Below, piece by piece: positions 16,158-32,871 of a stretch of 64,000 nt of DNA. How positions within the stretch are numbered: the first letter of the stretch is position 1; every line of letters begins with the position of its first letter. Source of the stretch: Escherichia coli (GTDB lineage Bacteria; Pseudomonadota; Gammaproteobacteria; Enterobacterales; Enterobacteriaceae). A program made the translations under genes and the position numbers. The notes beneath the pieces were generated by a model that saw only the letters and a list, made by a program, of their open reading frames with translations, was not told the DNA's origin and ran no database searches. Location: NCBI RefSeq assembly GCF_003334305.1, contig NZ_QOWS01000007.1. One strand, given 5' to 3'.

Positions 16158-16232
16158 ATCGCCGGATGCTGATTGCCGGATGCGACGCTGACGCGTCTTA
16201 TCCGGCCTACAGCGTCTTATCCGGCCTACATG
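16158..16232. repeat. REP/BIME cluster between convergent tktB and ypfG
   Basis: Repeated gccggatg / cttatccggcctaca units. Confidence 0.6.
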
Positions 16233-30358: not shown

Positions 30359-31222
30359 TTAAATGCTTTTACCAAAAGTATTGCATTGTGCCGGATCGCC
30401 GCTGTCGAAACCACGTTTAAACCAGCTGTAGCGTTGCTGAGAAGTGCCATGTGTGAAACTATCTGGTACTACTCGCCCCTGACTTTGCTGTTGTAAACGG
30501 TCATCGCCGATGGCCTGCGCCGCGTTCAGCGCCTCTTCCAGATCGCCGGTTTCCAGAACGCCTTGCTGCTGCATGTTATGCCCCCAGACACCGGCAAAAC
30601 AGTCGGCCTGGAGTTCCATACGCACAGATAAGCGGTTCACTTCCGCCTGCGTCGCGTTTTGTTGCAGTTGACGAACTTTCGGCTCGATGCCTAACAGTTT
30701 CTGCACATGATGACCGACTTCATGGGCGATAACGTACCCCTGGGCAAAATCGCCATCCGCGCCAAGTTTGTCTTTCATGTCATCATAGAAGGAGAGATCG
30801 ATATAAACCGTGCCATCCGCCGGGCAATAGAACGGCCCCATTATGGACTGGCCCGCCCCGCATCCGGTACGCGTCATTCCACGGTACATGACCAGCTTCG
30901 GTTGCTGATAGGTCTTACCCATCTTCTCGAACTGTTGTCCCCAGGTGTCTTCCGTGGTTGCCAGAATCACCGAGGTGAATTTTGCGGCTTCGTCTTCATT
31001 AGGGCTAATTGACCGCGTTGATTGCTGTTGGGAAACCGGCTGCCCGGTCATCAACCCGGTTAAATCAACGCCATAGTAGCCTGCAACCAGCACGACTATC
31101 AGTAAAATCAGCCCGCCTTTACCGCTTGGCAGGCGAAAACCGGGACCGCCCATAGACGGACCACCAGAGCTGTTGCGCCTGTCTTCAACATTGTCACTTT
31201 CACGTCGTCCTTGCCAACGCAT
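30359..31222 (-). CDS. ypfJ: Putative zinc metalloprotease YpfJ (HExxH)
   Basis: 287-aa ORF with HEVGHHVQ motif and N-terminal TM segment, recognised YpfJ. Confidence 0.9.
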
Positions 31223-31368
31223 AGATACCTCAACAATATATTCATTATAGAAATGATCGTAGGTGGTTCAGAGGAAGATTACCACAGGAAAGCGGGATGA
31301 AATGGCGGAGGAATTAAGGCTTCATGCCACGTTATATAATTTACGAATGTTAGAAGTAAAAGAGAATG

Positions 31369-31767
31369 TTAGCTCCAATCTTCTAGTCTGATTCCCGCCA
31401 CTCGCTCAAACTCTCGGGTATTGTTGGTAACCACAATCAAACCGCGACTGCGAGCATGTCCCGCTATCATCTGGTCAAAAGGTCCAACAGGCCTTCCCTG
31501 CCGGGCAAGCTCGGCCCTGATTTGCCCGGTATGCGTCGCAGCAGCACTATCATAATCAAGCACTTCCAAACGAGATACGAAACCTTCAATCACCGCCAAA
31601 TTGCGTTCTGGCATCTGACTTTTTTCTGCCCCATAGATAAGCTCCATCAATGTTACAGAACTTATACACATCCGGCCAGAATTCAGGTTAAACCGCTCTC
31701 TGACATGTACTGGTTTATTCTTAATAGTGAAAATACAGATATTGGTATCCAGCATGAATTTCAGCAT
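31369..31767 (-). CDS. vapC: PIN-domain ribonuclease toxin, VapC family (closest recalled relatives Shigella MvpA / Salmonella VapC, which cleave initiator tRNA-fMet)
   Basis: 132-aa ORF beginning MLKFMLDTNICIF with conserved PIN acidic residues; near-identical in my recollection to enterobacterial VapC/MvpA; 1-nt ATGA overlap with the upstream antitoxin ORF. Confidence 0.85.
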   Translation of the reverse strand: MLKFMLDTNICIFTIKNKPVHVRERFNLNSGRMCISSVTLMELIYGAEKSQMPERNLAVIEGFVSRLEVLDYDSAAATHTGQIRAELARQGRPVGPFDQMIAGHARSRGLIVVTNNTREFERVAGIRLEDWS

Positions 31768-31994
31768 CAGAATGATTCCCTTTCCTGCATTGCGGGTTGA
31801 TCACGGATATCCATAAAATCCGCACTCACATTTTCGCCATCAAACCAACTGTCCCAGGACTCACCGGCGGGAGTGATGATTCTTGTACGACCAATCGCAA
31901 TAATTTCTACTTTCTTAACATCCTCTGGCAGAGCGACCGCTTTCGGTAATCTGACGGCCTGACTGCGATTACTTAAAAATACAGTAGTTTCCAT
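31767..31994 (-). CDS. vapB: VapB-type antitoxin (AbrB/SpoVT/MazE swapped-hairpin DNA-binding domain)
   Basis: Track ORF is 88 aa; start chosen at METTVFLSNRSQAVRLPKAV (75 aa), preceded by a G-rich SD; stop overlaps the vapC start. Confidence 0.8.
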   Translation of the reverse strand: METTVFLSNRSQAVRLPKAVALPEDVKKVEIIAIGRTRIITPAGESWDSWFDGENVSADFMDIRDQPAMQERESF

Positions 31995-32060
31995 AGCCCC
32001 CCCTTTTTTGGGATATACGTCATGTATATACATATTGGCCTGTTATTACTTTCCTGTCAA
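31995..32060 (-). promoter_or_regulatory. Putative vapBC promoter/operator
   Basis: On the minus strand ttgaca (-35-like) precedes a 12-bp perfect palindrome atgtatatacat and tatac direct repeats directly upstream of the vapB start. Confidence 0.4.
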
Positions 32061-32148
32061 AGGGAGATAATGCGAAGTATTGTAGCGGGGGTATCGAAGA
32101 CATTTAGCCGGAGTACCCTCCGGCTAAATAAACAAGCAACCAGAAAAA

Positions 32149-32871
32149 TCAGTCCAGCTGTACACCCAGGCGGCGGGCGACGGCTTCATAGGCCTCGATC
32201 AGGCCACCGAGGCTCTGGCGGAAACGGTCTTTGTCCATTTTCTCCAGTGTTTCTTTGTCCCACAGGCGGCTGCCGTCCGGGGAGAACTCATCGCCCAGTA
32301 CCACTTCACCTTTGTACAGACCAAACTCCAGCTTGAAGTCGACCAGAATCAGACCAGCATCATCGAACAGTTTTTTCAGCACGTCGTTCGCTTTGTAGGT
32401 CAGCTCTTTCATACGCGCCAGGTTCTCTTTGCTCACCCAGCCAAAGGTTTCGCAGTAAGATTCGTTGACCATCGGATCGTGCATGGCGTCGTTTTTCAGG
32501 AACAGATCGAACAGCGGCGGGTTCAGCTCAATACCTTCTTCGATTCCAAGACGTTTCACCAGAGAGCCAGCAGCACGGTTACGCACGACACACTCAACCG
32601 GCACCATATCCAGCTTTTTCACCAGACATTCGGTATCGGAGAGCAGACGCTCCATTTGAGTCGGGATACCCGCTTCAGCCAGTTTGCTCATAATGAAGTA
32701 GTTGAACTTGTTGTTCACCATACCTTTGCGATCAAACTGCTCAATGCGCGCGCCATCCCCTGCTGACGTATCATTGCGGAATTCGAGCACCAACAGGTCC
32801 GGGTTTTCCGTGCTGTATACGGTTTTCGCTTTACCACGATACAACTCAGCTTGCTTTTGCATCTTTATCAC
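32149..32871 (-). CDS. purC: SAICAR synthetase PurC
   Basis: Track ORF is 240 aa (237-aa PurC if translation begins at the internal [16 protein letters not shown]); recognised PurC. Confidence 0.93.

Follow-up and report, generated by a model that had tools for sequence, protein, structure and literature searches.

The two copies of the 9-bp direct repeat GAATGTTAG found at the 3' end of the toxin gene vapC most probably represent a chance coincidence (we set the probability at roughly 0.88) in the AT-rich non-coding stretch downstream of this gene, and are neither a duplication, nor a junction marker, nor a detectable cis-element. The gene belongs to a vapBC type II toxin-antitoxin (TA) cassette situated between ypfJ and purC in the window (the whole stretch of Escherichia coli DNA analysed, 64 kb). 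The junctions of the segment carrying vapBC are placed away from the repeat, they are not accompanied by any duplication, and the frequency of the repeat is at chance level. The vapBC islet would have arrived in the ypfJ-purC spacer by illegitimate recombination, and would then have spread in E. coli by homologous recombination through its flanks.

Organization of the ypfJ-purC locus

The genes present in the window around this locus were tmcA, ypfJ, vapC, vapB, purC and bamC, and the same genes are annotated by RefSeq in identical E. coli chromosomes. A TA cassette between ypfJ and purC had already been recognised in a preliminary description of this DNA, and its identity as vapBC was established by PF01850, NF010285, NF040493 and the overlapping gene order. 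VapC matched NF010285, "tRNA(fMet)-specific endonuclease VapC", with 291.3 bits (cut-off 143), matched PF01850 as well, and has all the acidic residues of the PIN domain (D7, E42, D98, E119); VapB matched NF040493 with 113.8 bits (cut-off 60). Cleavage of the initiator tRNA by this toxin and its neutralisation by VapB are predicted from the family assignment and from the 92-93% identity to VapC clusters of Shigella and Salmonella plasmids. The longest mechanical vapB ORF (to 32033) runs past the RefSeq start at 31994. The features of the locus are as follows (positions are those of the window):

30359..31222, minus strand: ypfJ, neutral zinc metallopeptidase, left backbone gene (ORF/annotation)
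31223..31314, minus strand: ypfJ upstream region, 92 nt, backbone common to the empty-site genomes and untouched by the insertion
31315..32140, no strand: cassette segment, 826 bp, restricted to E. coli carrying the cassette (occupied sites aligned with empty ones)
31315..31368, no strand: left flank of the segment, 54 bp, holding all of copy 1 plus 5 nt of copy 2
31345..31353, no strand: repeat copy 1 (GAATGTTAG), 16-24 nt downstream of the vapC stop, within the inserted segment
31364..31372, no strand: repeat copy 2 (GAATGTTAG), spanning the vapC stop codon and reaching one base into the terminal Ser codon
31369..31767, minus strand: vapC, PIN-domain tRNA(fMet)-specific endonuclease toxin, 132 aa (RefSeq, PF01850, NF010285)
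31767..31994, minus strand: vapB antitoxin, 75 aa (NF040493), its stop overlapping the vapC start
31995..32069, minus strand: vapBC promoter/operator region, with the palindromic motif GGATATAC..GTATATAC and homology to plasmid vapBC loci
32070..32140, no strand: right flank of the segment, about 70 bp, with a perfect 12-bp-stem hairpin (32102-32113 / 32118-32129)
32149..32862, minus strand: purC, right backbone gene (ORF/annotation)

The repeat was borne out as originally reported: GAATGTTAG occurs at 31345-31353 and at 31364-31372 with 10 nt between the copies, and the second copy does overlap the toxin stop codon (TAA, minus strand, 31369-31371). The match between the copies is exact over the 9 nt and can be extended on neither flank.

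Junctions of the inserted segment

The occupied alleles (the window and a second occupied strain) were aligned with the empty sites of K-12/W3110, ST131, O157:H7 and YPE12 in six-way and pairwise alignments. Identity with the empty sites reached 31314 (…GGAGGAAT), interrupted by isolated SNPs only, which places the left junction at 31314/31315; it restarted at 32141 (CAGAAAAATCAG…), 8 nt beyond the purC stop, which places the right junction at 32140/32141. The 826-bp segment enclosed by these junctions occupies the place of roughly 66 bp, hairpin included, in the ancestral ypfJ-purC spacer; since 66 bp were swapped for 826 bp, the event was a substitution and not a clean insertion. The distance from the left junction is 30 bp for copy 1 of the repeat and 49 bp for copy 2, both copies being inside the acquired segment.

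Comparison of the two ends of the segment disclosed no common direct or inverted repeat of at least 7 nt, hence no target-site duplication; a string similar to GAATGTTAG (up to two mismatches) was likewise absent near the right end (32040-32165). The 9-mer was also absent from the empty spacers of W3110, ST131, O157:H7, YPE12, E. albertii and Escherichia sp. MOD1; the nearest string in the empty sites is GAGAATGGTTG of O157, a derived variant of the ancestral GAGAGCGGTTG present in K-12, ST131, E. albertii and Escherichia sp. None of the three marks of a target-site duplication (a copy at each end, copies lying at the break points, a single copy in the empty site) was observed. The 826-bp segment is devoid of mobility genes, terminal repeats and recombination-site signatures, and contains only vapB, vapC and short flanks.

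The preliminary description had proposed that the repeat might mark the junction between the cassette and the backbone, with mere coincidence as its fallback, and had suggested aligning the region with cassette-free genomes, accepting that junctions mapping elsewhere would speak against the proposal. This alignment placed the junctions elsewhere, with both copies on one side and inside the insert, and revealed no duplication; the marker idea was consequently abandoned. The fallback agrees with the junction positions and with the chance-level frequency reported below.

The 54-bp left flank was also considered as a diverged form of the ancestral spacer, which would assign copy 1 to the 'backbone' and copy 2 to the 'cassette'. 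Local and junction-anchored alignments of this flank against the replaced spacer, with shuffled controls, gave p values of 0.12-0.83, and this candidate was rejected. Two resemblances noted by eye (GCGTTCAATGC with GGCTTCATGC, and TTACGAGAATGGTTG of O157 with the repeat) were not upheld by the shuffle-controlled alignments; the O157 string is moreover a derived variant, E. albertii, K-12 and ST131 reading GAGAGCGG at this position.

The replaced 66 bp include the hairpin of the empty sites, TCTTGCCGTGC-N5-GCACGGCAAGA. Downstream of purC, the occupied alleles carry at 32102-32129 the hairpin ATTTAGCCGGAG..CTCCGGCTAAAT in place of this Escherichia-type structure, and on the purC strand no T-run follows the hairpin in either the occupied or the empty allele. 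The core of the occupied hairpin (AGCCGGAG/CTCCGGCT) resembles the hairpins found at the same position in Citrobacter and Salmonella (GAGCCGGAGAGCGATCGCCGGCTC; AACCGGAG..CTCCGGTT).

Frequency of the repeat

The 64-kb window contains 9 exact direct repeats that are 9 nt or longer and offset by no more than 30 nt; simulating it 100 times with a first-order Markov model gave 5.45 ± 2.19. The 9-mer itself is not enriched: allowing up to one mismatch, GAATGTTAG has 7 occurrences in the window where 11.1 ± 3.4 would be expected. The pair is thus no more frequent than chance. Shuffling only the 153-nt spacer (37% G+C) gave P = 0.015 for a close 9-bp repeat, a value that overstates the significance because the spacer was picked post hoc, after a screen of the 64 kb. 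Two of the nine close repeats cluster at 16161-16230 of the window (GCCGGATGC and the 19-bp GCGTCTTATCCGGCCTACA), and by their appearance these look like extragenic palindromes of the REP/BIME type.

Occupied and empty sites across genomes

The cassette was present in 1615-1620 of the 5426 complete E. coli genomes (about 30%), the backbone flanks matching in all 5426. Among 80 enterobacterial loci with YpfJ, sampled at the species level, vapBC was found in two, both of E. coli, while purC and ypfJ were adjacent without vapBC in the 76-77 non-E. coli loci having both genes (two of the 80 loci lacked a visible purC, the contig being cut in at least one of them). The cassette-free loci include those of E. 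albertii, another Escherichia species, Citrobacter, Salmonella arizonae, Enterobacter and Klebsiella, and their purC-ypfJ spacer measures 109-263 nt in most cases. E. albertii and the other Escherichia species have an empty spacer of 167 nt, the same as K-12. Given this K-12-type empty spacer in two Escherichia species other than E. coli, and the adjacency of purC and ypfJ elsewhere, the sequences compared place the empty spacer as the ancestral state.

The 101 bp around the repeat showed at least 99% identity in 1609 of 1621 records; since this whole neighbourhood is nearly invariant, its conservation is uninformative on function. Both copies of GAATGTTAG were intact in L007 and L008, the most divergent of the occupied alleles and from divergent E. 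coli lineages, which have a few SNPs nearby. These alleles showed four SNPs in the 30 nt left of the repeat against none in the 28-nt repeat region, a contrast that is not significant (p about 0.1 by a rough estimate). Just left of the junction (the equivalent of window 31295-31314) their backbone has GGGAGGAAATGATGGAGGAAT, as against GGGATGAAATGGCGGAGGAAT in the window and in those E. coli empty sites that were examined. The three linked SNPs suggest that a flank hitch-hiked with the cassette, and also that homologous recombination, its crossover points varying, spread the islet.

A third spacer allele, of 290 bp, was present in two of the 5426 genomes: E. coli HH97 (NZ_CP116409.1; locus L087, 2424-2713) and strain HH45 (H112). 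It keeps the window sequence 31223-31336 exactly, the first 22 nt of the insert included, and continues with 24 unmatched nt, 41 nt identical to vapC (31508-31548), about 80 G/T-rich nt and a variant of the right-hand hairpin. This allele contains neither copy of GAATGTTAG; its appearance is that of a vapBC islet in decay, an assembly problem being another possibility. Other occupants of the purC-ypfJ spacer were a 1.6-kb segment in Siccibacter colletis (L070, 900-2500) with ORFs of 311 and 144 aa, to the eye NmrA-like and of the HxlR regulator type; a spacer of 606 bp, devoid of any obvious gene, in an enterobacterial MAG (L083, 1894-2500); and REP-like palindromes in Kluyvera ascorbata (L023). 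The purC-ypfJ spacer may be a recurrent landing site.

Relatives of the cassette

A donor was searched for in a plasmid collection, in 5.8 billion proteins together with the genomic contexts of the closest VapC clusters, and in the 80 enterobacterial species. The closest relatives were the vapBC pairs of F-like and pINV-type plasmids (71-77% identity in DNA, 85-93% in the toxin protein), which adjoin traD and lie mostly within the traD-traI spacer. Homology to the plasmid loci begins at 31368-31374, at the vapC stop codon, and its far end is at 32037 in most of them, at 32069 in Pantoea and at 31994 in the Salmonella plasmid locus L092. The stretch 32011-32037 (GGGATATACGTCATGTATATACATAT), just upstream of vapB, aligns to the plasmid vapBC operators in both orientations with 89% identity, which points to a palindromic VapB operator-like site conserved between the chromosomal and the plasmid cassettes. 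The GAATGTTAG string was absent downstream of vapC in all the plasmid relatives found. These searches yielded no donor with the same 54-bp and ~70-bp flanks, all the close relatives being in F-type tra regions with unrelated flanks. Three PLSDB records filed as plasmids carry the chromosomal tmcA-ypfJ-vapCB-purC-bamC-dapA block or are chromosome-sized (NZ_CP019906.1, 29 kb; NZ_OL790696.1, 4.8 Mb; CP061244.1, 1.4 Mb); they are probably mislabelled chromosomal contigs, and not evidence for a plasmid-borne cassette.

Search for functional elements at the repeat

The repeat sits in the 146-nt space between the co-oriented genes vapC and ypfJ. Consensus scans of 31315-31380 found no promoter-like or terminator-like site, no G+C-rich hairpin followed by a T-run was found at the repeat, and Rfam gave no match there at E <= 1. 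The folding energy of the vapC-strand transcript at the repeat (-15.9 kcal/mol, z = -1.65) is not unusual. Parts of the 92 nt upstream of ypfJ recur in other sampled genera, and as these 92 nt are outside the insert, ypfJ would retain its own upstream region intact.

Alternative explanations for the repeat

A target-site duplication produced by insertion of the cassette into the E. coli ypfJ-purC spacer, the main idea of the preliminary description, is hardly credible. Nine bp is a typical length for such duplications, and the closeness of the repeat to one end of the cassette is the sole observation in its favour; against it, both copies lie on the same side of the junctions, the empty sites hold no copy, and the approximately 66 bp of ancestral DNA were replaced, not duplicated. 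An event preceding the entry into E. coli fares somewhat better, although it is still very unlikely: the repeat would be the footprint of an earlier capture, in which foreign DNA became attached to a plasmid-type vapBC core (31369 to ~32070) in a donor outside the sampled genomes, a step that would have created or exploited microhomology or a brief duplication on the vapC-distal side, with the whole 826 bp entering E. coli later. This reading would account for copy 2 straddling the point at which homology to all plasmid vapBC loci ends (31368/31369), no source match was found for the 54-bp flank holding copy 1, and the mode of TA integration was called still unelucidated in a review (PMC7167474). 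However, a true duplication would flank the core, and there is no similar 9-mer near 32040-32165; the copies have nothing in common beyond the 9 nt; and at 71-77% identity the homology is expected to fade at the stop codon anyway, because non-coding DNA diverges faster. That the 9-mer pair itself is the relic of that first join between the vapBC core and foreign DNA, left by microhomology or a short duplication at the vapC-distal end in an unsampled donor, is a shade less probable again; if true, it would be a first sequence clue to the integration of 'naked' TA cassettes.

A cis-element would consist of two direct regulator sites or of a signal for RNA 3'-end formation or stability, acting on vapBC or on read-through into ypfJ, and we give it the same slender chance as such a relic. 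It would suit the position of the repeat between two co-oriented genes with no predicted terminator, the ypfJ start being 123-150 nt further on the same strand, and the copies are intact in all the occupied alleles sampled. Nevertheless, the near-invariance of the whole segment leaves this conservation without signal, neither the vapBC operator region nor any of the homologous cassettes contains the motif, the scans, hairpin search and Rfam comparison were negative, and the conserved 92 nt upstream of ypfJ are outside the repeat. Chance coincidence is thus preferred, and none of the points raised against it (the P value of 0.015, the edge of homology at copy 2 and the SNPs of L007 and L008) stands above what post hoc selection from a 64-kb window can produce.

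Comparison with known toxin-antitoxin islets

The useful result is a negative one, precise in its terms: the islet is bounded at 31315-32140, about 66 bp were replaced, there are no duplications, terminal repeats or mobility genes, and the 9-bp repeat is unsuited as a junction marker. The repeat resembles target-site duplications in being a short exact direct repeat of 9 bp near the edge of acquired DNA; unlike the duplications left by transposons and integrative cassettes, its copies do not flank the acquired DNA, and neither terminal inverted repeats nor a transposase or integrase accompany them. No paper on the ypfJ-purC site came up when the literature was searched for vapBC in combination with ypfJ or purC.

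The cassette shares with the plasmid VapBC (MvpAT) systems of F-like plasmids and Shigella pINV the gene order, the stop/start overlap, the palindromic operator region and the NF010285 assignment, and differs from them in its DNA (71-77% identity), in the restriction of homology to 31369-32037/32069 and in its unrelated flanks. Several TA genomic islets have been described: ccdO157 in folA-apaH (a 77-bp spacer in K-12), mazEF in relA-mazG, and parE/yiaG in nadR-attA (PMC7232551); intergenic spacers are regarded as plastic, and the mechanism of TA integration "remains unelucidated" (PMC7167474). The vapBC cassette in the ypfJ-purC spacer is a TA genomic islet of this known kind, with genes already annotated in RefSeq and nothing unusual about it, and it fits the picture of TA cassettes entering conserved spacers without a transposition signature (PMC7167474). 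Like the ccdO157, mazEF and parE/yiaG islets, it is a strain-variable two-gene TA cassette found between the same conserved housekeeping genes and lacking a mobility gene, and, as with ccdO157, the empty spacer is short (77 bp for folA-apaH, 167 nt for ypfJ-purC). It departs from the ccdO157 and mazEF islets in its family, VapBC instead of CcdAB or MazEF, and in the spacer occupied, ypfJ-purC; and it is set apart from the known TA islets by the replacement of about 66 bp, the ancestral hairpin included, by a segment that brought a hairpin of its own.
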